Below are positions 22,662-63,780 of a stretch of 64,000 bases of DNA, piece after piece. The stretch lies in the NCBI GenBank assembly GCA_013425405.1, contig JACCLF010000047.1, forward strand, positions 3,252 to 67,251. Reading direction: 5' to 3'. The first letter of the stretch is position 1; the number at the start of each line of letters is the position of its first letter. Made by a program: the position numbers and the translations under genes. The DNA comes from Candidatus Micrarchaeota archaeon. Lineage in GTDB: Archaea; Micrarchaeota; Micrarchaeia; Burarchaeales; Fermentimicrarchaeaceae. The notes beneath the pieces are model-generated. The model searched no databases and was not told where the DNA came from. It was given only the letters and a program-made list of their open reading frames with translations.

Positions 22662-22997
22662 GATAAGCTTTTTCTATTTAACTTTTAAATAGTTATTGGT
22701 CAACTACCACCTACTGAAATCAGTGGCTTGCTCAACTGACTTTCGTCGGGAGCAATAGGCTAGTCGAACTGCAGCCCATTAGCAGAGGTATAACTATAGA
22801 GGTTGTTTCCTCGAGAACTGTCTGGACGGTCCTCATCATGAGCATATCATGCAGAAAAAGATATTTAACAAGTATGAGCGGGAAATCCCACACTCTTCAG
22901 AGGTGGGATGAGAGCGAATGTATAACCTCGGAATTTTCCAGCGGATGCAGCTTCTCTCTATACCGGGTTTTCACTGGAAAGCTACCCCTCAGAGAAG

Positions 22998-23031: not shown

Positions 23032-24180
23032 ATGAGAGCTTACAAATTTAGGATATACCCCTCAAAGAAGCAGGAGGAGCAGATGAGACAGCACCTCTGG
23101 CTAGCAAAGAACCTCTGGAATGAGATGCTTGAGCACAGCAAGCAGACTTACAAGGATTTTGGCTACTTCCCAACAAAGAATACCCTGCAGCTCATTGTGA
23201 AGGATTATGGCCTCTATTCTCAAACACAGCAGGAGGTAGCACACAGGGTTTTCAATTCACTAATGAGGGTTTTCAAGCTGAGAAAGAAAGGAGTGGAATG
23301 TGGTTTCCCGCGCTTCAAATCAATTGACAGAATGAAGAGCTTGCATTACCCGCAGTATGAGACTGGTTTCTGGCTTGACAAGAAACTTAGAGTCACTCCT
23401 TTTGGGGAAATTGCAGTAAAGAAGCACAGGGAGATAACTGGAAAGATAAAGACGCTGACTCTGAAAAGAGAATCTTCTGGGAGGTGGTTTGCCCTATTTG
23501 CTGTTGAAACTCCGAAAGAAATCCCAAAAGAAAACAAGGGACGGGCAGTAGGGATTGACTTGGGGCTGAAAACATTTGCAACCCTCTCAAATGGCGAAAT
23601 GATAAAAAACCCAAGACACCTCATGAAGCATGAGGATAGGCTTGCCTTCATTCAGAGGAAGTTCTCAAAGAAAAAGAAAAGAAGCAAAAGCAGGAAGAGA
23701 GCAAAGGTAAGGATTGCAAGGCTTCATGAGAAAGTAGCAGACACAAGGAGAGACTTCCTGCATAAATCATCAACACATCTGGTGAATGATTATTCCTTCA
23801 TTGCATTGGAGAAACTTGCATCAAAAGAAATGTCAGAAGAGAATTATGGCAAGCAAATAAATGATGCAGGATGGAATATGTTTGCAAACATGCTTGCATA
23901 CAAGGCGGAAGGAGCTGGATGCAGAGTTGTGTTTGTAGATCCAAGGAATACAACTCAAGAGTGCAGCAACTGCCACCAGATTGTCAGGAAAGACCTTACA
24001 GAGAGGATGCATAAATGTCCTTTCTGCGGGTTGGAGTTGGATAGAGATATAAATGCTGCACGTAACATACTTACCAAAGCTACCGTCGGGCAGACGGGAA
24101 GTAACGCCTGCAATTCCTTGCAAAAGGAAAGAGATGTTGCATTGGCAACGTCTGTGAAGCAGGAAGCCCACATCCTTTAA
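23032..24180 (+). CDS. tnpB: TnpB RNA-guided endonuclease (IS200/IS605 OrfB)
   Basis: MRAYKFRIYPSKKQEEQMRQHLWLAKNLWN. AVGIDLGL, IALEKL, CSNCH...CPFCG and DRDINAARNI. Paralog of 14087..15280. Confidence 0.9.
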   Translation: MRAYKFRIYPSKKQEEQMRQHLWLAKNLWNEMLEHSKQTYKDFGYFPTKNTLQLIVKDYGLYSQTQQEVAHRVFNSLMRVFKLRKKGVECGFPRFKSIDRMKSLHYPQYETGFWLDKKLRVTPFGEIAVKKHREITGKIKTLTLKRESSGRWFALFAVETPKEIPKENKGRAVGIDLGLKTFATLSNGEMIKNPRHLMKHEDRLAFIQRKFSKKKKRSKSRKRAKVRIARLHEKVADTRRDFLHKSSTHLVNDYSFIALEKLASKEMSEENYGKQINDAGWNMFANMLAYKAEGAGCRVVFVDPRNTTQECSNCHQIVRKDLTERMHKCPFCGLELDRDINAARNILTKATVGQTGSNACNSLQKERDVALATSVKQEAHIL

Positions 24181-24197
24181 GGGTGGGAGCATGTCAC
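24097..24197 (+). ncRNA. Candidate omega-RNA scaffold core of TnpB copy 2
   Basis: Same invariant blocks and hairpins as 15148..15253. The terminal hairpin is CCCAC-A-TCC-TTTAA-GG-GTGGG. Confidence 0.55.
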
Positions 24198-25518: not shown

Positions 25519-26667
25519 ATGGAAATATGCATGCTTGACCCGCTCTTCTACCCGTACTTTGGGGGTACCGAAAAGGTAGTTTATGAGTTCGGCAAGCGTC
25601 TTGCCAGGAAGCATGGCATAAGCATACTCACCTCCCGCATACCCGGCACATCTCCCTACGAGGAAATTGAGGGAATGAAAGTTTACAGAACGCCTTGCAT
25701 ATACCTTAAGAACCTGCCTTCATTCATGCCTCCCCCCTACACCATTTCGCCGTTCCTCATGAGAGACCTTTTGAAGAGGTCTGAAGCCGATATATTCCAC
25801 ATCCACTGCAGGTATTTCTACTACTTGGAAACTCTAATCCCCATAAAATATATCATGAAGAAGAAACTGATGCTCACGCTCCACAATGCCAAGCCTGAAG
25901 GCATATCATTCATGACTGACAAATCCGCTGCGCTTTACGACATGGTTTGGGGTTACAGGATAATGGAAAACTGCAGCAGAATAGCTGCGGTGAGCAGATA
26001 CACCAAGGAGGTGACAGTCCCCGGCTACCTGCAGAACAACGCGGAAGTGGTATACAACGGAGTTGATGAGAAACGCTTCAAACCAAGGAAGGACAACTCA
26101 GTGAGGGAAAAATTCGGCATTGGAGAAGGACCGCTCCTGCTGACCAATGGAAGGCTGGTGACGCAGAAAGGCATGTACTACCTCATTGAGGCATTCTACA
26201 TGCTCAAGAAATACTTCAAGGATGCAAAGCTGATAATAATAGGGAAAGGGCCTCTGAAAGATGAGCTGGCCAGCCAGTGCTTCAGGCTTGGTGTGCAGGA
26301 TTCTGTAAGCTTTGCGACCGGCATACCTGAAGAGGAGCTTCCGCTCTATTACAATGCCGCTACCCTCTTCGTCCTGCCGACACTTTGGGAGCCTTCTGCA
26401 GTTGTGCTGTATGAGGCTCTTGCTTCAGGCAAGGCAATAGTCACCACAAGGGTTGGAGGGAACCCAGAGATAGTGAGCGGCAATTGCGGAGTGCTGGTTC
26501 CACCGCGCAATCCGAAAGAGCTCTGCGACAAGATTAAGCTTCTGCTTGAGGATGACGGGCTCAGGAAGAGAATGGAGAAAAATTCCAGGGAGCGGGCTGT
26601 TGATAATTTCACATGGGATATTGCCGCTAAGAGGTACGAGGGTATATACAAGAGAGTCCTCTCTTAA
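25519..26667 (+). CDS. Glycosyltransferase family 4
   Basis: EPSAVVLYEALASGKAIVTTRVGGNPEIV (EX7E region). Start at MEICMLDPLFYPYFGG, because the longer track ORF overlaps the previous gene. Confidence 0.8.
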   Translation: MEICMLDPLFYPYFGGTEKVVYEFGKRLARKHGISILTSRIPGTSPYEEIEGMKVYRTPCIYLKNLPSFMPPPYTISPFLMRDLLKRSEADIFHIHCRYFYYLETLIPIKYIMKKKLMLTLHNAKPEGISFMTDKSAALYDMVWGYRIMENCSRIAAVSRYTKEVTVPGYLQNNAEVVYNGVDEKRFKPRKDNSVREKFGIGEGPLLLTNGRLVTQKGMYYLIEAFYMLKKYFKDAKLIIIGKGPLKDELASQCFRLGVQDSVSFATGIPEEELPLYYNAATLFVLPTLWEPSAVVLYEALASGKAIVTTRVGGNPEIVSGNCGVLVPPRNPKELCDKIKLLLEDDGLRKRMEKNSRERAVDNFTWDIAAKRYEGIYKRVLS

Positions 26668-26715
26668 CAAGGTGAGCGGGAAACCCCACATCCTTTAGGG
26701 GTGGGAGCATGTCAC
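26664..26715 (+). repeat. Solo IS605-end-derived hairpin element (PATE/REP-like)
   Basis: TTAACAAGGTGAGCGGGAAACCCCACATCCTTTAGGGGTGGGAGCATGTCAC. The 5' arm matches the IS copy-2 left end and the 3' arm matches its right end. It fills the whole gap between two convergent stop codons. Confidence 0.8.
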
Positions 26716-45535: not shown

Positions 45536-46306
45536 CTATGCAATCTCAGGCATTTCACATTTGAATTTCATCAATTTTATCCTTTCCCTAACCCTCCTTA
45601 TAGTGCTTTCCTTCAAACCAAGCTCTCTTGCAATAGTCCTATCAGTCTCCTTACTAACTCTCATTAGAATATGGTCAAGCTTGCCGTAGCTTACCCCAAG
45701 CTCTCCTTCAGCAGTCTGCCCTTCCCACAAGCCTGGAGAGGGTTTTTTCTTTATTATCTCCTTTGGAACCCCTAGCTCCTCTGCAAGTTTTCTCACCTCA
45801 GTTTTATACAGCCCACCAATTGGGAGGAAATCAACCCCCCCGTCCCCATAGCGCGTGAAATAACCCATCTTCAGCTCGCTTCTGTTCCCTGTTCCGGCGA
45901 CAAGCAGATTCCTGCTGTTAGAAAAGTAATATAGGATGCACATCCTTATCCTTGCTCTCAGGTTTCCATTCGGTATTCGGGCTCCTTCTTCAAATGTTGG
46001 CAATATCCGTTTGAACTCCGTATACACCGAGCTGAAATCAATTGTGTAATACTCCACGCCTAGGTGCTTTGCGACTCTTAGGGCATCTTCTATCTCTCTT
46101 TTTCCAGTGGTCTCTCTCTCAGGCATTATAAGAGCAGTTACCCTTCTCTTGCCAAGAGCCTTGGTGCAGAGTGTTGCGACAACTGCAGAATCGATTCCTC
46201 CGCTGAGGCCGACAACTACTCCCCTCGCGCCGGCTTCCCTGACCTTTCTTTTTATAAACTTCTCTAAAACCATATACTCCCTCATGTATGGATTTTCCTC
46301 CGCCAT
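45536..46306 (-). CDS. nadE: NH3-dependent NAD+ synthetase
   Basis: VVGLSGGIDSAVVATL PP-loop, 256 aa. Confidence 0.9.
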   Translation of the reverse strand: MAEENPYMREYMVLEKFIKRKVREAGARGVVVGLSGGIDSAVVATLCTKALGKRRVTALIMPERETTGKREIEDALRVAKHLGVEYYTIDFSSVYTEFKRILPTFEEGARIPNGNLRARIRMCILYYFSNSRNLLVAGTGNRSELKMGYFTRYGDGGVDFLPIGGLYKTEVRKLAEELGVPKEIIKKKPSPGLWEGQTAEGELGVSYGKLDHILMRVSKETDRTIARELGLKESTIRRVRERIKLMKFKCEMPEIA

Positions 46307-46362
46307 CCTTTTTATTATTTCTTATACTTGCATTTTTAAACTTTAAAATCAATAATATACAC

Positions 46363-47622
46363 ATGGTTGAGAGACTCGCCAAGCCCCCAGAACTTATAAT
46401 TGAGAAAGAGGCGGTTCTCCACAGAGCTAGAGAATTTTCTAAGTATGCAGATCTAGGTGAGATTAGCGTCTATGAAGAGAAGGGCCTGCTCAAATACATG
46501 CTATATAACCAGAATACCCTGTCATTTGGGGAAGGGGGAAGAGAGAAATTCCTTGGCAGCCTTGAAACTTTCAAAGTTGGGAGAGAAAGGAAGGGAATGG
46601 AGCTTGTTATAAAAGTAATCGACAAATTCGGCTATGTTCCCGAGGATATGGCATATGATGTACTGGCTCCCTATACGAGAACCCACAAACAAAAGGTTGA
46701 CAACCAAGTGAAGTATGCCTCATACAAAAGAGCAAAAACTCTAATTGATGCCTCCCTCTCTGATGGATGCCTCAAGAAAGAATTGTGGAAACCGAGAGGT
46801 GAGGAACACCTTGAATATTGGGTCTGGTATGAGCTTAAGAACAGGAGGATATTCGATAACTGGCCCTTTGTTTCTAATGAAAACAATAAGCATGTCGGGC
46901 GACCGATAAGCGAAGCTATATACTCCCCTACGGTGAATACCGCGTATATAAAGCCGAAGTTTAAAATTCAACGGCACGAATTCGTAGAGTCCAACAGAAA
47001 TACAATAGACAAAATAATGAGGAAATTCGACTCAAGACTGGCAGGCTTCAGCTATGAGAAAGAGGGTAGGAACATATTCTTAAGATGCGGTTTAACAGTG
47101 GATTGGATAATCGCATTCGAAATTCCACTGCCAAAAGCACTGGAGCTTGCAAAAACCCACCCAGAAAACTGGATGGAGAAAAGAATTCTAACCAGGTACA
47201 GCGAGATAAAACTTCCCAGAGGCGGTTCTGTTGAAACCTGGAAGGCAAACATTGAATACAGCAAACTGAACGGAATAAAATTCAAGGAAAACACCGCCAT
47301 TCTTATGACGGACCACCAGAAGTTCAAAGAGTCGCATAGATTCTTTGTTGAAAAGGGAATTCAGTTCAATGACTTCCTTCAGATTTTCACTTTTGATCTG
47401 GAAAGAATAAAGAAAAACTATGAATTCTGCGTTGAGCAACACTTGCAATTCAATGAATGCCTGAAACTGCTTGTAATACCCACTGGACAATTGCGAGAGA
47501 ATTATGACCTTTGTGAGTCTTTCAGAGATAGGATAGACAACTCAGGTTACCCCCATCTTCTTGTAAAGCCAACGGAAAAATTGAAAAAGAGATTTGGAGT
47601 TGACCAACCGCAAGCAATATAA
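46363..47622 (+). CDS. Hypothetical protein with C-terminal ~29-aa helical repeats
   Basis: Start at MVERLAKPPE. The repeats are ...NIEYSKLNGIKF..., ...SHRFFVEKGIQFNDFL..., ...NYEFCVEQHLQFNECL... and ...NYDLCESF... Confidence 0.5.
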   Translation: MVERLAKPPELIIEKEAVLHRAREFSKYADLGEISVYEEKGLLKYMLYNQNTLSFGEGGREKFLGSLETFKVGRERKGMELVIKVIDKFGYVPEDMAYDVLAPYTRTHKQKVDNQVKYASYKRAKTLIDASLSDGCLKKELWKPRGEEHLEYWVWYELKNRRIFDNWPFVSNENNKHVGRPISEAIYSPTVNTAYIKPKFKIQRHEFVESNRNTIDKIMRKFDSRLAGFSYEKEGRNIFLRCGLTVDWIIAFEIPLPKALELAKTHPENWMEKRILTRYSEIKLPRGGSVETWKANIEYSKLNGIKFKENTAILMTDHQKFKESHRFFVEKGIQFNDFLQIFTFDLERIKKNYEFCVEQHLQFNECLKLLVIPTGQLRENYDLCESFRDRIDNSGYPHLLVKPTEKLKKRFGVDQPQAI

Positions 47623-48924: not shown

Positions 48925-50370
48925 ATGAGATACAAAAAAGCGCAAATATCCGGTCTCGATCTTATACTTGCAATAATGCTTTTCTCTACTGCGATTATAC
49001 TTTTTTCGATTTTATGGGAAGTAGTGCAGTACAATGTAAAAACATCAACGGATGCGAATGTAATCGCCATCCAGGTTGCAAACAGGCTTCTGGACAGCCC
49101 AGGATACCCACTTAACTGGAACGCAACAAATGTGCAGCTGATAGGCCTGTCATCTGACAGAGGAGTGATGGACCAAGAAAAATTACAGAACCTCATCAAT
49201 CTTCTGAATAACCCCGCCACTTACGACCAGGCGAGGACGCTTCTTGGTCTTGGGCCGTACCAGATTTGCGTCAATATGACGTATCCGGATGGCACTCCAG
49301 TGATAATTAACAATCAAACCAATCAAACTGCCGTTGGTGGCAACTGCAATATCAGCGCCACAAGCTCCAGCAGCATAACAAGAACGGCTCTGTACGGGGA
49401 AGTCGTCGTTCATAACAATTCAATAACTTTCATTCTTGACTCTTCTGGAAGCATGAATTGGTACTCCACTTCTCTGGGATACACCCCCGGTGGCAATCTC
49501 ACAAGCTCATGGGTTAATACATTCAATGTAACATTCAACTCCACAAGCTCCAATTTTGATTTCGTGATGGAAACAAATGATAGTGGCAGCTCTAATTCCA
49601 GGATAAATGTAACAAGCCCATCGGGAATCAAGTACGGATGCAGGGATGGCAATCCAGGCTGCACCAACTGCGGCACTGGGTGCACAGCAACCCACTACAG
49701 CGGAGCAGATTACCTGAATTTCACAAGCTCGCGGTGGGAGAATGGAACATGGAGGGTCTATGTCAAAAAGTATAACCACCCAGGCACTCTATCCTACGAT
49801 GCTATGGCTCAAACTCCTCCTGTGAGGATAGATGCAGCAAAGAATGCAACAAAGAATTTCATTAATTTAATCCATGGCACATCCAGCTCGAAGGATGAGA
49901 TAGCGCTCTACAGGTTCAATCCGGTTGGAGGTGGGTGCAACAGCCTGAGATTGAGCAATTTCACGCAAGATAATAATACGCTAATAGGTAACGTTAGCAC
50001 CATAACCGCAAATGGTGCAACTCCAATTGCGCAAACTCTAAAAGATGCTGCAGATAACTCACTTAAATGGGCAACAAAGAAGCACACAATGATGATACTT
50101 GTCTCTGACGGAAGCGAGACATGCAATATGAGCACAACCGCCGTAAGTGATGCTGCGCTATATGCTATTAACTATGTTGAAAAGATATGCACGGTTGGAT
50201 TCGCCCAGGGCACTGCAGGCGAGGATCAGCTCAGGACTGTTGCCCGCATTGGAAAATGCCAGTATTACTCCGCAAGAAATCAAGCACAGCTGGCGCAGGC
50301 TCTGACGCAGATATATTTCGGAAATCTAGAGAAGCAGAACGTGTGGCTAACAATAGTGGTATGGAAATGA
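48925..50370 (+). CDS. Pilin-like (class III signal peptide) protein with vWA domain
   Basis: N-terminus MRYKKAQISGLDLILAIMLFSTAIILF. MIDAS ITFILDSSGSM. Later vWA elements are DEIALYRF, TANGATPIAQ and MMILVSDGSE. Many N-x-S/T sequons. Confidence 0.75.
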   Translation: MRYKKAQISGLDLILAIMLFSTAIILFSILWEVVQYNVKTSTDANVIAIQVANRLLDSPGYPLNWNATNVQLIGLSSDRGVMDQEKLQNLINLLNNPATYDQARTLLGLGPYQICVNMTYPDGTPVIINNQTNQTAVGGNCNISATSSSSITRTALYGEVVVHNNSITFILDSSGSMNWYSTSLGYTPGGNLTSSWVNTFNVTFNSTSSNFDFVMETNDSGSSNSRINVTSPSGIKYGCRDGNPGCTNCGTGCTATHYSGADYLNFTSSRWENGTWRVYVKKYNHPGTLSYDAMAQTPPVRIDAAKNATKNFINLIHGTSSSKDEIALYRFNPVGGGCNSLRLSNFTQDNNTLIGNVSTITANGATPIAQTLKDAADNSLKWATKKHTMMILVSDGSETCNMSTTAVSDAALYAINYVEKICTVGFAQGTAGEDQLRTVARIGKCQYYSARNQAQLAQALTQIYFGNLEKQNVWLTIVVWK

Positions 50371-50807
50371 GAAAAGGAGTTATTTTCACCTTTGATGCGC
50401 TTGTTGCTGTTGTCATAGCAGTAATGGCACTGACCGTACTCATGCAGATGGTGAGCCTGAGGACAAGCGAATGGTACAAGGAGATTGCGCTCTACAACTC
50501 CGCCCAGGATTTTCTCACCTCAAGGGATAAGGATGATACGCTAGTCGGAGCATTCAGCAAAACACCTGGGAATATCACATCAACTTTCACAGGTCTTATA
50601 GCATCCCAGATTCCTGCCAACATGGTGGCGCGACTGAACTTTACCATCTGCAGGTACAATCAAACTGCTTCTGCTTTTACATGCAATCAGAATATAACTG
50701 CGGGGTCAAATGGCACAACTCCTGTCAAAAGCGTTGTTAGAAGAGTCTTCACGGATCCGGCGAATAACTATTATGGCGTAGCCGTTATGGAAGTGTGGTA
50801 CAGATGA
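50367..50807 (+). CDS. Pilin-like protein (class III signal peptide)
   Basis: MRKGVIFTFDALVAVVIAVMALTVL. The ATG overlaps the upstream stop (ATGA). Confidence 0.7.
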   Translation: MRKGVIFTFDALVAVVIAVMALTVLMQMVSLRTSEWYKEIALYNSAQDFLTSRDKDDTLVGAFSKTPGNITSTFTGLIASQIPANMVARLNFTICRYNQTASAFTCNQNITAGSNGTTPVKSVVRRVFTDPANNYYGVAVMEVWYR

Positions 50808-51682
50808 AAAGAGGATTCATGCTCACTGCAATCACAGTAGTGCTATTCATGTTGCTGATAGACACAGCTCTCCAGTACTCCGAGAACTCATCAGCTTACT
50901 CAAAGAGAATCTCCGAGATGATTGTATCAAACAAAGTAACCTATACGTTTGATGATATAAACCAAGATGTAACCAGGATATTTGGCGTAAGCATAACCCA
51001 GAAGGCACCTTACTTGGTAATACAGGATTCAATGCCTGCTAGCAATATAACAACCAATCTTGGGCTCTATGAAAATTTTGTAAGGAACTACTACCTGCCT
51101 CCGGAAATAGAGGCAAAATTCCTGAATTCAAACGAACAGCCTATAACTCTAAACAACCTCTCAGCCAGTATTTTTGTAAGCCCATTCAACCTTAACTATG
51201 GCTACGATAATTTTAGCAAAAACAATCTTCTTATACAGGTCCCCGTTTCGCAGGTAGGCGCGATACCAAATGTGTGGTACAACCTGACAGTGACAAGCGG
51301 CAACTTTTCCATACCCCCGGATACTATAACTTGGGATACCCTGCCTGCTGGATGCTGCATTATTCTTGGTGTGACAATATATGATGGCGCTGCCGTAGTT
51401 CCATACAACTATAGCGGTATTTTTAACCCCACCAATTCTCCACCTGGGCATCTCAACCTGAGTTTCGTGGATCAGAACTGCTCGATGGAGATTCAGATAG
51501 GGAGCCAGTACCTCCTCAACCTCACCAATCACGGATGCAACATATCCAGCCAGATCAGCTTCAGCCTCAATGACAGTAACACACGTATTTATCTCCCTGA
51601 AAAAATAAGCGTCAGAGATGTGAACTACAACACTTCAAAGAAGGATAACATAAATCTAGTTGTAAAAAAGCTGATGGGCTAG
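50804..51682 (+). CDS. Pilin-like protein (class III signal peptide)
   Basis: MKRGFMLTAITVVLFMLLIDTAL. ATGA overlap with the upstream gene. Sequon-rich. Confidence 0.65.
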   Translation: MKRGFMLTAITVVLFMLLIDTALQYSENSSAYSKRISEMIVSNKVTYTFDDINQDVTRIFGVSITQKAPYLVIQDSMPASNITTNLGLYENFVRNYYLPPEIEAKFLNSNEQPITLNNLSASIFVSPFNLNYGYDNFSKNNLLIQVPVSQVGAIPNVWYNLTVTSGNFSIPPDTITWDTLPAGCCIILGVTIYDGAAVVPYNYSGIFNPTNSPPGHLNLSFVDQNCSMEIQIGSQYLLNLTNHGCNISSQISFSLNDSNTRIYLPEKISVRDVNYNTSKKDNINLVVKKLMG

Positions 51683-55881: not shown

Positions 55882-55933
55882 GTGACATTCTCCCACCCCT
55901 AAAGCATGTGGGATTTCCCGCTCGCCTTGTTAA
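55882..55933 (-). repeat. Solo IS605-end-derived hairpin element
   Basis: The reverse complement reads TTAACAAGGCGAGCGGGAAATCCCACATGCTTTAGGGGTGGGAGAATGTCAC. Its TTAAC contains the TAA stop of the ACT-domain gene. Confidence 0.8.
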
Positions 55934-56379
55934 ATTCTGAAGTCCCTGCCTATTGTTTCGTATGCCATGCCGCAGTCCTTCCAGTTAAGCAGCAGAACAG
56001 CGGAATCAAAGCTCGTGGATATGCTGACTATGTTTATATTCTTAGTCGCCAGAACGCCCGCAAGCTTCGATATAACTCCGGGCTTGCCCATAAACTCTGT
56101 TCCGGTTACTGTAACCATGCCGAGATTCCTTGTTATGGAAAGAGCGCCGAATGAGGATGTCTTCGAAACTATATCCTCAAGAGCATCCCTAGCTTTTTCC
56201 ATGTCTGCATCATCCACGAAGAAGCTTACCGAGTATTCACCCATGGAGATGCAGTAGATGTTTATACTCTTTGCAGAAAGAGCTGATGAGAACTTTGTTA
56301 TTACTCCTGGGGTCACTCTGACCCTATCGCCTGTGACAGACAATGAACTTATTGGCCTCTTGTAGAGCTTCAAATCCAT
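55930..56379 (-). CDS. Stand-alone tandem ACT-domain protein (aspartokinase regulatory-domain-like)
   Basis: Two ACT-like repeats: GVITKFSSALSAKSINIYCIS and GVISKLAGVLATKNINIVSIS. Confidence 0.65.
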   Translation of the reverse strand: MDLKLYKRPISSLSVTGDRVRVTPGVITKFSSALSAKSINIYCISMGEYSVSFFVDDADMEKARDALEDIVSKTSSFGALSITRNLGMVTVTGTEFMGKPGVISKLAGVLATKNINIVSISTSFDSAVLLLNWKDCGMAYETIGRDFRI

Positions 56380-56456
56380 CTTCCCACAGATTAAGTATGG
56401 ATATACGGATATATAATATTTTCTATAGAGCGCTTAACCGAACGTTTAAAAAGGAG

Positions 56457-57677
56457 ATGCAACAAATCTTAATTATGCAAGAACGAGTCGTAAAGTTGCA
56501 TAAAGATAGCCTAAATTCACTATTTTTGTTAATACAAAATAAGAGTACGCTGAAGGAATTCTCAAGAACTATGGGTATACGATACGGAACTTTAAGAAAA
56601 TGGAAAGCAGGTAAGGCCCCCATACCTTATTCAGTATTTTGTAAGATTATCAAAAAGTACCAAGCAAATAAAAAATCATTTGAGTACGAACTCTCAGTAT
56701 CAAAAAGATATGGGGCAAGTCGATTGAATGAATGGATTTTACTGCAGAAACATAAAAAAATACGAACTAAAGCAACTAACACGATGTACAGAAAATACGG
56801 GAGAGATTACTTCAGAAAAATAGGACTAAGAAGTGCTGAAAAAGGATACTTAACAAAAAAAGAACTTGAAGTTCACTTGATAAATAAAAGTTTACGCAAA
56901 AAACTACAATCAAAATCACATTTTACAATTAACGACGCAAATTACGATTTAGTCTACTTCAAGAATAACAAACCAATTTTTGCAGAAGAGGTACTCGGTG
57001 GAAGGAAAAAGAAGAGTTCAGTCCTATTTCAGATTGCAAAAATCCAAGAAAAAAGTGAGAAATTAGGGTTTCCAGTTATAGTTACATCATGGTACAAACA
57101 AAACTTTAATGCTAAAAATGAGATGTTCCCTCTCGAAAGTGTATTGTGGATGCTAGAGACGGATTCGCTTTTGCCAATATTGCTGGATGTTAAGGCATTT
57201 TTTGATTTTAGAACCAGATTATTGTCCAGTCAAGTCGTACCATTGAAAGGAAATTTGTACGAATTCTGTAAAAAAGAGATTAAAAACAGGTATTTATTAA
57301 GGGGGGCAAAGGCTGAAAAAAATACCCCACAAAATTATTTAGAGAAAACAGTGCACGAGCTATTCAAAAAGCATGGATTCAATCCTGCAGGCAAAAAAAT
57401 ACTTAGAACGAAGTATGATACCTATTTTGTCGTAGACGATTTTATACCTGAACTAAACGCGGCAGTTATGGTGACACCAACAAATATAGATGATATTATC
57501 GGTCAATCATTCGGGATAAAAACAATGTGCGACGATAGACTAGTTACTGTTGGCGTACTACAAAATAAGACTCGATATAAGAAATATAAATATGAGAGAG
57601 TAAAGAATAGGTATGTGGACTATGTATTTGTTGGTGCAAAAGAACTGGAGGAATGGTTGAAGAACATGGGCTCGTAG
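56457..57677 (+). CDS. AT-rich orphan protein: N-terminal HTH plus two possible PD-(D/E)xK-like modules
   Basis: HTH STLKEFSRTMGIRYGTLRKWKAG. Later YDLVYF...FAEEVLGGRKK and YFVVDDF...AAVMV. The last 10 nt overlap the tRNA-Ala 5' end. The start is uncertain (56457 or 56475). Confidence 0.5.
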   Translation: MQQILIMQERVVKLHKDSLNSLFLLIQNKSTLKEFSRTMGIRYGTLRKWKAGKAPIPYSVFCKIIKKYQANKKSFEYELSVSKRYGASRLNEWILLQKHKKIRTKATNTMYRKYGRDYFRKIGLRSAEKGYLTKKELEVHLINKSLRKKLQSKSHFTINDANYDLVYFKNNKPIFAEEVLGGRKKKSSVLFQIAKIQEKSEKLGFPVIVTSWYKQNFNAKNEMFPLESVLWMLETDSLLPILLDVKAFFDFRTRLLSSQVVPLKGNLYEFCKKEIKNRYLLRGAKAEKNTPQNYLEKTVHELFKKHGFNPAGKKILRTKYDTYFVVDDFIPELNAAVMVTPTNIDDIIGQSFGIKTMCDDRLVTVGVLQNKTRYKKYKYERVKNRYVDYVFVGAKELEEWLKNMGS

Positions 57678-57762
57678 CTCAGTAGCAGAGCGCTTCTTTG
57701 GCGAAATAACTATTTTTGTTCCAATATAGAAGAGGCCGCGGGTGCGACTCCCGCCGAGTCCA
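57668..57762 (+). tRNA. tRNA-Ala (anticodon GGC) with 23-nt intron at 37/38
   Basis: Acceptor GGGCTCG/CGAGTCC with the G3:U70 Ala identity pair. D stem GCTC/GAGC. Anticodon stem CTTCT/AGAAG. Loop TTGGCG-[intron]-T. T stem GCGGG/CCCGC. Discriminator A. The intron folds as a BHB: TTGG/CCAA helix flanked by 3-nt bulges CG|A and TA|T. Confidence 0.8.
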
Positions 57763-57850
57763 CTGCTGATTTTACTTATTGAGTAATGTGTGCGATTGCG
57801 AAAAATCCTCAAAAAATTAGGGCGTTCGGTTTCTGGAAAATATTAAATTT

Positions 57851-57900
57851 TTGGGAGGTTAGGTGGTGGAATTATCGTGAAAGTTCCACTGACCTCCCAA
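57851..57900. repeat. Interrupted hairpin flanked by 12-nt direct repeats
   Basis: TTGGGAGGT...GTGGAA-loop-TTCCAC...ACCTCCCAA. AAATTAGGGCGT occurs at 57814-57825 and 57906-57917. Confidence 0.6.
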
Positions 57901-58085
57901 CCCCTAAATTAGGGCGTACTAAATAAGGAAAAGGAGATATTTAAACTTGCTTCTTCTAAACAAAAATAAGGAGGTCAATCCGAAGATTGCGTTGAAAGGA
58001 TATTCTTTGAGAATCATACTACGCCGCTCCCATTTGAAATCGCACTCAATATAATTAAATACATAGATTTACATGTTATATTGTA

Positions 58086-59951
58086 ATGAAAAAAGGGCAG
58101 AGCTGGGCGGAGTACATAACAGTTCTTGCAGTTACCGTCATAATGGCGGGAATTGCCATGTACATGGCCGGCGCCTTCATGGGAAACAACAGGCAGATTT
58201 CTGAGAAAGACAGCGCGTCATACTGGTTTTCAGCCGACGTTGGAATTACCAGATACTACGTAAACTCCTCAGCTGCACAGCTCCTTATAAAGAATAACAA
58301 GAATTTCAAAATAAATGTGACAAACATAAGCTCTACAGGTGTTAGCATTCTACTTGCGCCGGATGGAGCCAACAGCGTAGTGCTAGAGCCTGGACAGAGT
58401 GTGCAGGTTACTGTGCCCGGTTTGACATGCCTAACCGGAGCATACTCCCTCCCTTTGGTTATAACGTATGCAGATGTGAATTATGGTGCGAAATATACTG
58501 TCTACGGTGAGAAGCCACTTATCGGGCAATGCATGAATTTCACCTCTCCTCCAGCTGCACAATGCTCTCCTCCTTGCACAACTAATACAACAGCGTGCAT
58601 TGCATTCTGCAGCGTAAATCTAAAATGCACCTTCCAAGCAAGTTCTGCAACATGCCAGATACCCTGTGTTGGGACGCAATGCACTTTCTGTCTACCTAAC
58701 TGTGGAAACCCAACATGCACATCCTGCGGAACAAACTCAACATGTGTCCAGAGCAATAACTGGTGTAACGGGACTCAGAGCTGCCTCGCCGACACGGCCG
58801 ATACGTGTAGCATACCCTGTTCTAGCGGAGCCTGCACTTCATGTCAAGCCTGCACTCCCGGCACATGCACAAACTGTACAAATGGGTGCAATGCAACAAC
58901 CGGCTTGTGCAACCCCGCAGCGCCAACATGCCAAGGCTGTACATTTAACGGCTATTGCAACTCAAGCTGTACGGGTTCCAGCTGTACAACCTTCGATATG
59001 GTATGCGATAACGCCGCACCTAACGCTCAGGCATGCTCCAACTCCACAGGGGGAACGACAGGAGGTCCTCCGTACTACTCCAAAGTAACCTGTTGCAGTG
59101 GTACTGCGCAAAGCTGTGGAACGAATTCAACCATCACCTGTCTCCATACTGCTAATTGGTGCAATGGAGCAACTCAGAACTGCAGCCCGGATATAATCGT
59201 CCCATGCAATATTTCGTGCTCTGGCGCAGGAGTCTGTGACTCATGCACACCAACCTGCACTACCGGCGCATGTACGAACTGTCCTGGAGGTCAATCATGC
59301 AATGCGACTACTGGCCTTTGCAATTCAGTCTGCCAGTCAGACTGCACATTCGGCGTCATTGGCATATGCAACTCCAGCTGCTCAGGAAGCTGCACAGGCT
59401 GGCTATCTGGGTGTGCCGGCTTCAATAAGGGCAAATCAATATGCGCTGATACATATCATAATGTTTCCTGCTGCAACGACGCACCAACAAGCTGCGCAAC
59501 AAACAGCACTTCATGCAATGCATACTGCAATGCAAACCAGAACTGCACCTATCCATTCAACCCTGCAACATGCCAGAGGACGTGTAATTCAACTACTGGT
59601 CTCTGTCAGTATTGCACTCCTTCATGCGGAACTGCCACATGCACTGGCTGCGGAACAAGCAGTATCCCATGTAATCCATACTGCAGCTCAAATCGGAGGT
59701 GCGTATATCCGTCTAACCCTGTAACATGCACTAATACGTGCAGCGGAGGTTCCTGCCAGCTTTGCACTCCTTCATGCGGAACTGCCACATGCAACAACTG
59801 TGCAGCAGGATGTATAGGCGCAGGAGTCTGCGTACCATTCTGTACTGGAGCAGGCGATACTTGTAATGTAAACTGTAAATGTCGCACTAGCAATCCAAAA
59901 TGCTGTGGCGATGGGCGGTGTCACCCGTCATCATTCCTTTGTCTAGCATAG
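58086..59951 (+). CDS. Pilin-signal (class III signal peptide) protein with giant cysteine-rich, sequon-rich modular ectodomain
   Basis: N-terminus MKKGQSWAEYITVLAVTVIMAGIAMYMAG. Residues ~155-621 hold about 86 Cys by hand count, many as CxxC. Internal duplications include CNATTGLCN x2, NWCNG(T/A)Q x2 and CTPSCGTATC x2. Confidence 0.8.
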   Translation: MKKGQSWAEYITVLAVTVIMAGIAMYMAGAFMGNNRQISEKDSASYWFSADVGITRYYVNSSAAQLLIKNNKNFKINVTNISSTGVSILLAPDGANSVVLEPGQSVQVTVPGLTCLTGAYSLPLVITYADVNYGAKYTVYGEKPLIGQCMNFTSPPAAQCSPPCTTNTTACIAFCSVNLKCTFQASSATCQIPCVGTQCTFCLPNCGNPTCTSCGTNSTCVQSNNWCNGTQSCLADTADTCSIPCSSGACTSCQACTPGTCTNCTNGCNATTGLCNPAAPTCQGCTFNGYCNSSCTGSSCTTFDMVCDNAAPNAQACSNSTGGTTGGPPYYSKVTCCSGTAQSCGTNSTITCLHTANWCNGATQNCSPDIIVPCNISCSGAGVCDSCTPTCTTGACTNCPGGQSCNATTGLCNSVCQSDCTFGVIGICNSSCSGSCTGWLSGCAGFNKGKSICADTYHNVSCCNDAPTSCATNSTSCNAYCNANQNCTYPFNPATCQRTCNSTTGLCQYCTPSCGTATCTGCGTSSIPCNPYCSSNRRCVYPSNPVTCTNTCSGGSCQLCTPSCGTATCNNCAAGCIGAGVCVPFCTGAGDTCNVNCKCRTSNPKCCGDGRCHPSSFLCLA

Positions 59952-59960
59952 AAGAAATAG

Positions 59961-60014
59961 CTTAGCAGAAGCGAGCGAGAAACCCCACACGCTTTAGCGG
60001 TGGGAGCATGTCAC
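59961..60014 (+). repeat. Solo IS605-end-derived hairpin element
   Basis: CTTAGCAGAAGCGAGCGAGAAACCCCACACGCTTTAGCGGTGGGAGCATGTCAC. The inner stem CGC/GCG is compensatory relative to the other copies. Confidence 0.8.
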
Positions 60015-60074: not shown

Positions 60075-60341
60075 GTGATGCCGATGTTCAACCTTGGGAG
60101 GAAGGGGTATACCAGCGAATGGTGGAGCAAGAAGCTCCGAAAGAGATTCTTAATGTGGGCAAGTTACTTTATAGTCGGCATGTACCTGCTTTTACTAGCG
60201 GTTTTCATAATCCTGTCCCTCTCATTTCCTGGAGCATCAGACCCGATGCATATTTCATTCCTCAAGGACTTCATATTCTACTTCAGCTCTCCAGTTATTC
60301 TTTTTGCCATACTGCTAGTGCTCTGGAGCAGAGAAATATAG
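60075..60341 (+). CDS. Small membrane protein
   Basis: 88 aa with two hydrophobic helices. Confidence 0.4.
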   Translation: MMPMFNLGRKGYTSEWWSKKLRKRFLMWASYFIVGMYLLLLAVFIILSLSFPGASDPMHISFLKDFIFYFSSPVILFAILLVLWSREI

Positions 60342-60829: not shown

Positions 60830-62374
60830 ATGCCCGAAGTGAGGAGAGTTTTGATAAGCGTTTCAGACAAGAGCGGAATTGCCGAATTCGCAAAGGGACT
60901 TTGCGAACTTGGATTCGAAATAATATCGACGGGAGGAAGTGCGAAAATTCTGAGAGACAATGGCATTCCAACAAAGGAGGTATCCGATATTACGGGCTCA
61001 CCCGAGATGCTTGACGGGCGTGTGAAGACTCTTCACCCGAAGATACACGGAGGCATACTGGCGCTGAGGGGCAGGAAGGAGCATATGCGGCAGCTGAAGG
61101 AGAATGGCATAGAGAAGATAGACCTGGTTGTCGTTAATTTCTACCCATTTGAGCAAACAATCTCAAAGAAAGATGTTAAGCATGAAGATGCTATTGAGAA
61201 CATAGACATAGGTGGGCCCACGCTCATAAGGGCAGCTGCCAAGAACTACGAGAGCGTTGGGGTTGTAGTCGACCCTTCCGACTACCAGGGAGTTCTCAGC
61301 GAGCTCAGGAAGGAAAAATTCCTTTCGCCTCGCACAAGGGAGAGACTTGCAACCAAAGCTTTCCAGCATACTGCAAGATATGATGCCATAATCTCAAACT
61401 ACCTTGAGAAAAAGTTCCCCGGGGAGTTTTTCCCGAAATTCCTAACTCTGAGCTTTGAGAAGAGCATGGAGCTTCGCTATGGAGAGAATCCGCACCAGAG
61501 GGCATCCTTCTACAGGGATATGGAAAGCGATGAAACTTCAATCTCAAATGCAAGGCAGCTGCAGGGGAGGGAGATATCCTACAACAACATGCTTGATGCC
61601 GATTCCGCCCTTGAGCTTCTAAAGGAATTTGAGGAGCCTGCCGTTGTTATAGTCAAGCATAACAACCCCTGCGGGGTTGCAACCGACAAAATCCTGAAGA
61701 ACGCATACATCAAGGCAAAGGCAACCGACCCCGAGGCTGCATTTGGAGGCGTTGTGGCCCTCAACAGAAATGTTGATGCTGACACCGCAAGAGAGATAAC
61801 CACGTTGCTGACAGACGTATTGGTGGCTCCAGGCTATTCAGCGGAAGCATTGGAAATTTTTTCGGGAAAGAAGAACATGAGAGTGCTGGAACTCGGCATT
61901 TTCTCCACAAAGAAGAGAGAGCGGAGAGAGCTTAGGAGCGTGAATGGAGGGCTCCTTGTTGAGGAGAGGAATACTAAGCTGCTGATTGGCGAGCCAAAGG
62001 TTGTTACCAAAAGGAAGCCAACAAAAGCGGAAATGAGGGCGCTGTTGTTTGCATGGAAGGTATGCAAGCATGTCAAATCCAATGCCATAGTATACGCATT
62101 TGAGGATAGAACCGTTGGAATAGGTGCGGGGCAGATGAAAAGGTCAGACTCCTCAAAGCTCGGTGCAATGAAAGCAGTTGAATCGCTCAAAGGCGCGATT
62201 CTTGCATCCGATGCATTCTTCCCATTCAGGGACGCAGTGGATGTTGCAGTGGATGCGGGAGTTACCGCAGTAATCCAGCCAGGCGGTTCAAAGAACGATC
62301 AGGAGATAATAGATGCCTGCAACGAGCGCAATATAGCCATGGTTTTCACTGGCATACGTCACTTCAAGCACTAA
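60830..62374 (+). CDS. purH: Bifunctional AICAR transformylase / IMP cyclohydrolase
   Basis: VRRVLISVSDKSGIAEFAKGL, KTLHPKIHGGIL and C-terminal GIRHFKH. Confidence 0.95.
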   Translation: MPEVRRVLISVSDKSGIAEFAKGLCELGFEIISTGGSAKILRDNGIPTKEVSDITGSPEMLDGRVKTLHPKIHGGILALRGRKEHMRQLKENGIEKIDLVVVNFYPFEQTISKKDVKHEDAIENIDIGGPTLIRAAAKNYESVGVVVDPSDYQGVLSELRKEKFLSPRTRERLATKAFQHTARYDAIISNYLEKKFPGEFFPKFLTLSFEKSMELRYGENPHQRASFYRDMESDETSISNARQLQGREISYNNMLDADSALELLKEFEEPAVVIVKHNNPCGVATDKILKNAYIKAKATDPEAAFGGVVALNRNVDADTAREITTLLTDVLVAPGYSAEALEIFSGKKNMRVLELGIFSTKKRERRELRSVNGGLLVEERNTKLLIGEPKVVTKRKPTKAEMRALLFAWKVCKHVKSNAIVYAFEDRTVGIGAGQMKRSDSSKLGAMKAVESLKGAILASDAFFPFRDAVDVAVDAGVTAVIQPGGSKNDQEIIDACNERNIAMVFTGIRHFKH

Positions 62375-63285
62375 TCATTTTTTCTTTCGCTCCACACTGC
62401 AAACAAAAGTACACCAGCCAGTATGCAGAATGGTATGCATCCCTTGATAAGCGCAGAAGTTATGTTTGTCACGTTCTCAGTGCTGGGCGTGTTATTCTCA
62501 GTCTCGTTGTAGGTTTGGTTATAACTCTCATTCTGGGGAACTTCGGTGTTGTTGTTCTCAGGAGGGGCTGACTGGTTATTCTGCGAGTTGTTATTGCCCG
62601 GTGGTGCACCGCACGATGCAGGCTTAGCGTATCCCTCAGCCTGGCGTATCCTGTTTATTGCATCATTTACCGCATAGAGGGAGTCATGAATGTTGCATAC
62701 GACCAGCATATCACTTGCTCTCTGAATCTCAGTTGATGCAAACTGCAATACGTTATATCCCGATGTGTTGTAGCAATTTCCAGTGTACTGTGCGCTGACC
62801 CTGGTATACTCGCTCCTTGCGACATCCAGTTTGTCCAAGACGGTTTGCTCATAAATGTTCGTATAGTGCCCCACTGTCACCTCAAGTGTTGTATCATATT
62901 CCATTGACCCGGCGCAATATTCCCCATTGCCGCAAATATCGCCAACCCACCCGACTATCTTGAATGGAATAACGTCAGTTGCGTTCTTCCCACCGGTTAT
63001 GGTATACAACGTAAATGTGCAGGTCTGCCTCATCCCAGCGCCGACATCGCATGCTTTTCCACCATCCTGCAGCTGACCTGAGGAAGAGTTGTAGTAGAGA
63101 TAGGTGACTCTCATAAATTTAGTGCTGGAAGGATTCTGGATTCCGACGTCCACAGTAAAGCGGTTTGCATCTCCTTGCATCCTGCAATTTGAGACGTTAA
63201 ATAAACTGGTGCCTACTAAAGTTGCAGTCAAATCAGCTGCACTCACAACGCCGACCATCAGCAAAACAGCCAGGAAATATCTCAT
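62371..63285 (-). CDS. Secreted protein with Sec signal peptide, Asn/Thr-rich linker and C-terminal TM anchor
   Basis: MRYFLAVLLMVGVVSAADL. C-terminus is ...NNNSQNNQSAPPENNNTEVPQNESYNQTYNETENNTPSTENVTNITSALIKGCIPFCILAGVLLFAVWSERKND. Confidence 0.6.
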   Translation of the reverse strand: MRYFLAVLLMVGVVSAADLTATLVGTSLFNVSNCRMQGDANRFTVDVGIQNPSSTKFMRVTYLYYNSSSGQLQDGGKACDVGAGMRQTCTFTLYTITGGKNATDVIPFKIVGWVGDICGNGEYCAGSMEYDTTLEVTVGHYTNIYEQTVLDKLDVARSEYTRVSAQYTGNCYNTSGYNVLQFASTEIQRASDMLVVCNIHDSLYAVNDAINRIRQAEGYAKPASCGAPPGNNNSQNNQSAPPENNNTEVPQNESYNQTYNETENNTPSTENVTNITSALIKGCIPFCILAGVLLFAVWSERKND

Positions 63286-63726: not shown

Positions 63727-63780
63727 CTTAGCAGAAGCGAGCGAGAAACCCCACGCTCTTCAGAGGTGGGAGTATGTCAG
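63727..63780 (+). repeat. Solo IS605-end-derived hairpin element
   Basis: CTTAGCAGAAGCGAGCGAGAAACCCCACGCTCTTCAGAGGTGGGAGTATGTCAG. Loop and inner stem are of the copy-2 left-end type (CTC-TTCA-GAG). Confidence 0.8.

Follow-up and report, generated by a model that had tools for sequence, protein, structure and literature searches.

Within a 64,000-nucleotide stretch from the genome of a Candidatus Micrarchaeota archaeon (contig JACCLF010000047.1, positions 3,252 to 67,251; this whole stretch is referred to as the window and is numbered from its first letter), one gene raises the question of what a protein that begins as a type IV pilin can be doing with an ectodomain that is exceptionally rich in cysteine. 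The open reading frame (ORF) at 58086–59951 of the + strand, with its stop codon at 59949–59951, encodes 621 amino acids (aa) starting with the N-terminus quoted in a preliminary description made from the DNA letters alone, and its product is identical to the NCBI "hypothetical protein" H0N98_04365 of Candidatus Micrarchaeota archaeon. It contains 88 cysteines, only 2 of which fall in residues 1–150, and the remaining 86 make up 18.3% of residues 151–621; the mean cysteine content of 37 other ORFs in the window is 1.6% and the maximum 4.6%. The reading favoured here, to which a probability of roughly 0.6 is assigned, is that the product is a modular archaeal type IV pilin whose cysteine-rich rod acts as a variable adhesin or coat.

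The pilin module and its cysteine-rich cargo

The N-terminus consists of a short basic leader ending in glycine, MKKG|QSWAEYITVLAVTVIMAGIAMYMAG, followed by a hydrophobic stretch with a glutamate at position +5. From the alignment and the AlphaFold2 (AF2) model, nucleotides 58086–58175 encode a class III signal peptide, with predicted cleavage at G4|Q5, together with a hydrophobic alpha-1 helix covering residues 5–30 (this and all further features of the gene lie on the + strand). In an alignment of 77 sequences Q5, E9, Y10 and L14 are each at least 90% conserved, and the family consensus includes Cys115 and Cys149 of the globular domain that follows. This domain (residues 31–150, 58176–58535) is formed of a short helix and an Ig-like beta-sandwich, as judged from AF2 and Foldseek, and is modelled with a predicted local distance difference test (pLDDT) score of 80–98. 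The model of residues 1–150 as a whole has a helix at 4–30, a short helix and a nine-strand sandwich, at a pLDDT of ~95.

A Foldseek search with the model recovers, at E ~1.5e-3 and amid many generic Ig-like folds, subunits of archaeal pili and archaella (8fk7_A, 5tfy_A and 8q30), and the NCBIfam UpsA profile gives a sub-threshold match (E=8e-5). Amongst the homologues, P0019 and P0049 score 22.9 and 22.1 bits against PF04021, for which the threshold is 23.7 bits, and P0164–P0166 carry precomputed PF04021 matches. The pilin-type N-terminus and the beta-rich domain of ~120 residues proposed in the preliminary description are both borne out by these results. The target shares with the archaeal pilins of Sulfolobus (UpsA/Aap), Methanococcus (EpdA-E/MMP1685) and PF04021 the glycine-ended leader, the glutamine, the glutamate at +5, the helix and the Ig-like sandwich, but differs from ordinary archaeal pilins in being four times longer, in having an N-terminus below the Pfam threshold and in lying outside UpsA by score.

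An exhaustive phmmer search of 1.84 billion representatives returned 242 matches. The majority of the best 150 of these 242 are proteins of 140–180 aa that match residues 1–150 only, and about one fifth of the same 150 are longer proteins. The cargo borne by longer relatives includes, in Pfam terms, a PQQ propeller, Laminin_G_3, F5/8 type C, SBBP, Lcl_C and FGE-sulfatase-like domains. The closest stand-alone relatives, which are 44–48% identical to residues 1–150, are isolated among archaeal housekeeping genes and carry PF04021. Since the relatives either stand alone at ~150 aa or bear lectin or propeller cargo, residues 1–150 can be regarded as a general pilin carrier module.

Residues 151–621 consist of five copies of a module termed A, two copies of a module termed C, two hairpins (h) and one cap, in the order A-A-h-C-A-h-C-A-A-cap. 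The modules were called from pairwise scores against composition-preserving shuffles and with hidden Markov models (HMMs). The A1, A2 and A3 copies, as labelled in the shuffle test, gave z = 11–16. The preliminary description had read the same region as A-B-B-A-A followed by a tail, with a ‘type B’ unit of ~105 aa. The N-halves of the two ‘B’ units match each other with z = 11.6, their C parts with z = 6.4 and the hairpins h1 and h2 with z = 5.7; moreover, the N-halves match the A modules with z = 4–7.5, and a single HMM picks up all five A copies. Each ‘B’ unit is thus an A module joined to a hairpin and a separate module C, and the former order gives way to A-A-h-C-A-h-C-A-A-tail. The proposal of an 86-cysteine ectodomain of duplicated modules was correct, both in the count and in that the repeats beat shuffled controls.

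The cysteine-rich part starts with a linker (residues 151–170, 58536–58595) that includes Cys160, Cys164 and the first sequon linker, CTTNTTAC. Each A module, each C module and the cap contains 10 cysteines. The first two A modules occupy residues 171–214 (58596–58727; HMM E=1.4e-15, shuffle z = 11–12 against A2 and A3 of that test) and 220–264 (58743–58877; HMM E=8.4e-12, z = 11.6 against the third copy), the latter being the N-half of the first ‘B’ unit. Hairpin h1 (residues 265–281, 58878–58928), which has Cys268 and Cys275, matches h2 with the z score given above and is followed by the first C module (residues 282–344, 58929–59117; HMM E=1.2e-21), which includes a CC pair. The third A module (residues 352–399, 59139–59282) was called by HMM, hairpin h2 (residues 400–415, 59283–59330; CPGGQSCNATTGLC) by shuffle comparison with h1, and the second C module (residues 416–470, 59331–59495) again by HMM. 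The fourth A module (residues 477–522, 59514–59651; HMM E=6.8e-17), which is the copy chosen for modelling, and the fifth (residues 529–572, 59670–59801; HMM E=3.2e-16) precede the C-terminal cap (residues 573–621, 49 aa, 59802–59948), on which Pfam is silent and for which AF2 predicts beta-hairpins at a pLDDT of 57–70. There is no C-terminal transmembrane (TM) helix in the target.

Module A, of ~45 aa, follows the framework C-x3-C-x5-C-x8-C-x3-C-x4-6-C-x2-C-x3-C-x4-C-x2-C and also has conserved aromatic, proline and glycine framework positions, while module C is ~55 aa in length. The modules are joined by a linker of six residues with the consensus G-T-N-S-T-x, and a sequon is found in 27 of the 39 distinct linkers located 5' of A modules, against ~17% expected from the background sequon density. 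At the DNA level, copies 4 and 5 of module A form a repeat (D2) with 78% identity, and the module ends and linkers constitute a further repeat family (D1). The whole protein has 12 CxxC motifs and 20 N-x-S/T sequons. Residues 151–621 include only 22 D/E/K/R and 62 F/W/Y/L/I/M/V residues.

In the AF2 model of the full-length protein the cysteine-rich part has a pLDDT of 30–45, which is attributed to misalignment of the modules in the multiple sequence alignment of the family. A single A module (residues 470–529), modelled from an alignment of 41 module instances, reached a mean pLDDT of 85.1, with the five models at 81–85, and is predicted to form a small beta domain of five short strands.

Module families and their exchange at a conserved locus

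The cysteine-rich part lies outside described families in all the searches made, as the preliminary description had suspected. Pfam gave zero matches for this part, with the whole protein or with isolated modules, even at E<=10, and NCBIfam left it without a match. Sequence searches of the PDB found nothing with the whole protein and no match at E<=10 with a module A profile of 41 instances, and a Foldseek search with the A-module model of pLDDT 85 gave a best E of 9.2, with no meaningful neighbour in the PDB or BFVD. Modules A and C thus appear to be undescribed domain families.

The likeness to Giardia's variant-specific surface proteins (VSPs) and to furin and EGF repeats, which had been pointed out from the letters, holds as an analogy only. 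The Giardia VSP profile PF03302 was silent on the whole protein and on the modules at E<=10, and EGF-like, furin-like and TNFR cysteine-rich repeats gave neither a profile nor a fold match to the target modules. The target resembles Giardia VSPs and high-cysteine membrane proteins in an ectodomain with 12–18% cysteine, many CxxC motifs, an abundance of threonine, serine, asparagine and glycine, and a variable repertoire. Unlike them, it is prokaryotic, has an N-terminal pilin anchor and shows no sequence similarity; furthermore, it varies by allelic module exchange at one locus, whereas Giardia switches among ~200 paralogues. The resemblance is taken to be convergent. EGF-like, laminin-EGF, furin-like/TNFR and LDL-receptor class A repeats are likewise beads-on-a-string modules of 40–55 residues with their own closed disulfide sets, and such eukaryotic disulfide-rich repeats serve as rigid spacers or binding surfaces, but the target modules have 10 cysteines rather than six to eight, a different spacing and no profile or structure match to these families.

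Only a handful of proteins matched the cysteine-rich part in the phmmer search. When the A-A alignment was used for pattern and tblastn scans, 185,579 species genomes yielded 2 loci, namely those of Ca. Fermentimicrarchaeum limneticum Sv326 and Micrarchaeota Sv174, together with 5 loci in Joint Genome Institute (JGI) metagenomes and 0 in viral contigs; each pattern scan used one to three peptide patterns, such that the counts represent a lower bound. On the strength of these scans and of the exhaustive phmmer search, modules A and C were found only in a narrow clade of Micrarchaeota. A profile search of a set of 5.8 billion proteins with the A-A pair recovered 2 proteins and none of P0001–P0013, from which pilin-type members the profile had mostly been built; this is attributed to composition filters, and the result is not used as evidence of rarity.

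Twelve homologues keep the cysteine framework. In P0011–P0013 the cysteine-rich modules are joined to different pilin-type N-termini, and in P0017, P0022 and P0133 modules A and C occur in proteins that are not pilins; these start with a signal peptide or with a head of Ig-like or hydrolase type, followed by C and A modules, the motif ‘GGGSPL(L/I)RK’, a TM helix and finally a tail of basic residues. With their cysteine-rich ectodomain, C-terminal TM helix and short basic tail these three relatives add to the likeness with Giardia VSPs. As A and C occur without the pilin module, they are independent, portable extracellular units of the Micrarchaeota clade. The signal peptide of P0017 holds a cysteine (LVGC) that may belong to a lipobox. 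P0014, an orthologue of 377 aa from a metagenome, keeps the cysteine pattern up to about residue 260; the sequence beyond is rich in His/Ala/Gln/Thr, as is typical when cysteine-rich DNA is read out of frame, and a frameshift in this allele or a fault in the assembly is the probable cause.

A pilin module fused C-terminally to modules that exist outside pilins is what defines a modular pilin. Modular type IV pilins are known from bacteria, for example from Streptococcus sanguinis (Raynaud et al. 2021, PMC8179133), in which PilB carries a von Willebrand factor A (vWA) module and a ConA-like lectin module is found on PilC. The present architecture fits this concept and is therefore not unprecedented, the more so as the same pilin module bears lectin or propeller cargo elsewhere; the Laminin_G_3 lectin, discoidin and propeller domains carried by relatives are a direct parallel to the modular pilins of the 2021 study. 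The target differs in being archaeal, the 2021 census having used the bacterial IPR012902 motif, and in that its cargo comprises ten tandem cysteine-rich modules of undescribed families that are reshuffled between strains.

Evidence for this reshuffling comes from the locus itself, which is syntenic in four other contigs (L001, L002, L003 and L008), with an ACT-domain gene, a tRNA, the pilin, a membrane protein of 85–91 aa, HxlR and PurH. The orthologous proteins vary from 361 to 664 aa and have 1–5 A modules, 1–5 C modules and further module types in differing orders, a finding that answers the suggestion that homologues be checked for module copy number. The additional cysteine-rich module types, which are absent from the target, are seen in P0002, P0003, P0005, P0007–P0010 and P0017 (loci L001, L003, L008 and L009), with motifs such as ‘NCDxNPxxGCEVNL…NCGxCG’, ‘CG(D/N)GxCxxGETxxxCxxDC’ and ‘CxDxNxCTxDxC…CTHTPI’.

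Compared with L001, the flanks of the gene are 73–82% identical, and the 5' and 3' parts of the gene are 86.9% (58053–58570) and 87.4% (59457–59883) identical. The 886 nucleotides (nt) between them (58571–59456) are unalignable, with the 5' breakpoint, at ~58570, falling in the linker after the pilin domain and the 3' shared block starting within the second C module. Third-position divergence in these conserved gene ends is 0.25 per codon, against 0.35–0.46 in the neighbouring genes. Compared with L008, the identity is 98.8% over 57245–59275, and the shared block stops within the final CxxC of A module 3. Past this point the hairpin follows in the window, while in L008 a GTNTTS linker leads into one more A module, and the downstream flank resumes at just 85.5% identity. 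The cysteine-rich part of the L008-shared block has 11 non-synonymous and 5 synonymous changes, none of which removes a cysteine. Six of the 25 mismatches of this 2-kb block fall within 16 nt at 58385–58400 (codons 100–105, including E101N), which suggests a tract of micro-conversion affecting a loop on the surface of the pilin domain.

In these alignments the orthologues keep the pilin end and differ in the modules they carry, the recombination breakpoints falling where modules meet, and the D1 repeat, which covers module ends and linkers, offers homology for such exchange. A diversity-generating retroelement or a store of silent donor cassettes was considered and, for the window, rejected, as no second copy of gene segments exists there except for the internal repeat of A modules 4 and 5.

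Pilus, surface coat or metal-binding protein

As a modular type IV pilin, the protein would be cleaved after Gly4 by a prepilin peptidase, and the alpha-1 helix would hold it first in the membrane and later in the type IV pilus core. Because the cargo is bulky, a position at the pilus tip or sparsely along the filament is most likely. Five internal disulfides would lock each module and N-glycans would cover the linkers, such that modules and linkers would form a stiff, protease-resistant and glycan-shielded rod projecting from the filament. Strains are envisaged to swap whole modules by recombination at conserved module ends. Since the pilin end and the locus are kept while the modules are exchanged, the rod is taken to be a fast-evolving contact surface, which may be an episymbiont's adhesin or variable coat for binding to a host or a surface, or may permit escape from pilus-targeting viruses. 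Type IV pilus systems and a FlaK-like peptidase are reported from another Micrarchaeon, and Micrarchaeota have been observed in contact with hosts through pili-like structures (PMC5498576).

A somewhat unlikely alternative is that the protein is never polymerised and is a membrane-anchored surface coat or stalk, with the signal and helix used for export and anchoring and the rods forming a glycocalyx-like or S-layer-associated brush. Pilin-type signals are indeed carried by solute-binding proteins in Sulfolobus. Modules A and C are found in a stalk-like position in the C-terminally TM-anchored proteins P0017, P0022 and P0133, between the membrane and a hydrolase or Ig-like head; 470 residues of cargo are bulky for a filament subunit, and pilus machinery genes do not adjoin the gene in any of the four loci. 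On the other side, residues 1–150 are 35–48% identical to many stand-alone pilins of ~150 aa, with the size and context typical of major pilins, and the determinants of polymerisation (Q5, E9 and the helix) are conserved. It is common, too, for major pilin genes to lie apart from those of the machinery. Such separation is stated for one pilin family by Makarova et al. (2016, PMC4858521).

It is far less probable that the protein binds metal or is redox-active outside the cell, with the 86 cysteines acting as thiolate ligands in a metallothionein-like manner, in an array of Fe-S or Cu clusters, or as a redox relay. The very high cysteine content, the CxxC, CC and CxC spacings of the ectodomain and the few competing side chains are what such a protein might be expected to have. 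The cysteine counts, however, are even in every unit, with 2 in the pilin domain, 2 in the linker, 10 in module A, 10 in module C, 2 in each hairpin and 10 in the cap, and the totals are even in all 14 pilin-type homologues (13 of full length plus P0016, an N-terminally truncated homologue missing its first residues), over a range of 32–142. Amongst 47 instances of module A, 30 retain all ten cysteines. Cys3 is replaced by tyrosine in six of the 47, and in five of these six (P0007/225, P0009, P0010, P0014 and P0013/663) Cys9 is replaced too; the sixth (P0012/623-663) has a different pattern, in which the alignment is uncertain. No instance was found in which Cys9 is lost and Cys3 retained. Joint loss of Cys3 and Cys9 is expected of a bonded pair rather than of a ligand set. 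Metallothionein-like proteins typically lack both fixed cysteine pairing and regular secondary structure. There are only 3 histidines and few acidic residues here, the aromatic, proline and glycine framework is conserved, a confident beta-rich model is obtained without metal, and linkers suited to N-glycosylation are typical of a structural ectodomain. On account of the even counts, the joint loss of Cys3 and Cys9 and the confident A-module model, structural disulfides are considered much more likely than metal ligation. The preliminary description had proposed extensive disulfide or metal chemistry, and of these the disulfides have gained indirect support from the counts and the co-loss, and the metal has gained none.

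It is equally improbable that the modules are effectors or toxins, that is, disulfide-rich, knottin-like units on a pilus tip that disturb the membrane of the host or block its enzymes. Many toxins and inhibitors are small, hyper-stable domains rich in disulfides. DPANN archaea, according to one account (PMC11291902), have to break through the envelope of the host or link up with it. Pfam and the PDB gave no resemblance to a toxin or inhibitor family, the modules also stand as stalks that connect enzyme or Ig heads to membrane anchors, and a T/S/N/G composition with almost no charge or amphipathicity is unlike that of membrane-active peptides.

Finally, the idea that the ORF is not a genuine gene and reflects a wrong frame, a pseudogene or low complexity draws on the other frames, where compositional bias leaves up to 175 codons open, and is refuted by third-position divergence, the 12 homologues, synteny in four contigs and two confident AF2 parts. 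Mismatches against the L001 orthologue fall on codon positions 1/2/3 in numbers of 7/9/39 in the N-terminal part and 8/13/35 in the C-terminal part, and the flanking PurH, ACT, TatD and Kae1 genes show the same third-position-heavy pattern. From this pattern, and from the homologues that share the framework, the annotated frame of 621 aa is judged to be the expressed one, as the preliminary description had assumed, and the open stretches in the other frames are compositional by-products.

Several points weigh against the modular pilin reading. The Foldseek matches of the pilin domain are weak, with high root-mean-square deviations, and stand amid many generic Ig-like folds. The UpsA score of 22.8 bits is far below the cut-off of 130, and the N-terminus of the target has no PF04021 match at E<=0.1. 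Neither a prepilin peptidase, a pilus ATPase or a platform protein, nor an oligosaccharyltransferase or a disulfide oxidoreductase, was found among the annotated ORFs of the 64-kb window, a scan confined to some of the ORFs of this stretch; two glycosyltransferases of family GT4 are present at 25.4–28.6 kb of the window. Disulfide bonding is deduced from parity and co-loss, and the co-loss cases are partly orthologous (P0009, P0010 and P0014), representing only ~3–4 independent events. The ratio of non-synonymous to synonymous substitution rates (dN/dS) in the cysteine-rich part of the L008 block, at ~0.7, is a rough estimate that points to relaxed constraint and is no proof of positive selection. 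Display on a pilus is likewise a proposal, as are the possible roles in adhesion, host binding and viral escape.

Neighbouring features and biological meaning

Upstream of the gene, at 58050–58061 (+), an A/T-rich, TATA-like box, TATAATTAAATA, can be read from the sequence 25–36 nt 5' of the ATG, and would be a possible archaeal promoter for a leaderless or short-leader mRNA. The DNA match to L001 begins within this box, at 58053. Further upstream, at 57668–57762 (+), lies a tRNA (Rfam RF00005, 53.9 bits) that is a conserved landmark of the locus, being kept in L001, L002 and L008. It is 95 nt long, a length that implies an intron of ~23 nt, was missed by ARAGORN and has by eye the anticodon GGC (Ala). 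The variable DNA on either side of the tRNA among strains suggests an integration hot spot. The tRNA overlaps the last 10 nt of a 444-aa ORF (56343–57677, +) that lies in an island of low GC content (37% against ~47%), has marginal helix-turn-helix matches and belongs to no family; an 83%-identical DNA copy exists in L003, and the ORF is absent from L001 and L002. The idea that this ORF and another of 444 aa, at 46288–47622, are copies of one insertion sequence (IS) was ruled out, the two sequences being unrelated.

Directly downstream of the pilin gene, at 60075–60341 (+), is a conserved membrane protein of 88 aa, with an ORF of 85–91 aa at the same position in L001, L002, L003 and L008. It is predicted to have two TM helices, is 90.6% identical in amino acid sequence to the L001 copy and so is better conserved than the neighbouring enzymes; no family was found for it. 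Between the two genes lies a solo hairpin repeat of 53 nt (59961–60013, +), which starts on the tenth base past the pilin stop codon, outside the protein, and derives from the 3' end of an IS200/IS605-family (TnpB) element. It belongs to a repeat family (D3) with a CCCCAC…GTGGG core and further copies at 22864–22916, 24144–24196, 26662–26714, 55882–55933 (−) and 63727–63779. The hairpin after the pilin gene is specific to this strain, as the corresponding spacers of L001 and L008 lack it, and it matches the 3' end of the L001 TnpB gene. The copy at 24144 and a related one at 15201 sit at the 3' ends of the TnpB genes 23032–24180 and 14087–15280, which have OrfB_IS605 and Cas12f1-like TNB domains. 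The solo IS end reported after the pilin stop is thereby confirmed, and the solo copies may be what remains of IS200/605 right ends or of omega RNAs.

At 48925–51682 (+), and at the same position in L001–L003, three genes whose products have pilin-like N-termini follow one another. The first encodes a vWA-domain protein of 481 aa (N-terminus MRYKKAQISGLD) and lies 8 kb upstream of the cysteine-rich pilin gene, the second a protein of ~150 aa (N-terminus MEMRKGVIFTFDA) with a weak DUF7288 match, and the third a protein of 295 aa that starts MKRGFMLT. By analogy, the triad may form a minor-pilin or tip complex, in which the vWA protein recalls PilB of S. sanguinis. On the opposite strand, 62371–63285 (−) encodes a protein of 304 aa with a signal peptide, a sequon-rich Asn/Gln/Ser/Thr stalk, a C-terminal TM anchor and no Pfam family, which is a probable glycosylated surface protein. 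At the same position in L001–L003 there are ORFs comparable in length (287–312 aa).

A broader interpretation, offered as a tentative possibility, is that Micrarchaeota, as members of the DPANN archaea, have on their pili a VSP-like variable system, in which one pilin locus provides five-disulfide modules of a new fold with glycosylated linkers and exchange between strains retunes host specificity or evades viruses. If so, A and C would be new extracellular families with a fold absent from the PDB, and the system would represent a prokaryotic convergence with the cysteine-rich variable coats of the Giardia VSP type. DPANN archaea rely on physical contact with a host, and the molecules that specify this contact are largely unknown. 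The cysteine-rich pilin is a concrete candidate, combining a pilin carrier with a hypervariable rod that is probably disulfide-locked and glycosylated and that is reshuffled between strains. It would extend the ‘modular pilin’ principle from bacteria to archaea and add two apparently new extracellular domain families, of which module A has a confident predicted structure without a PDB neighbour. The modules of ~45 aa, being predicted to be hyper-stable, may also serve as scaffolds for protein engineering.

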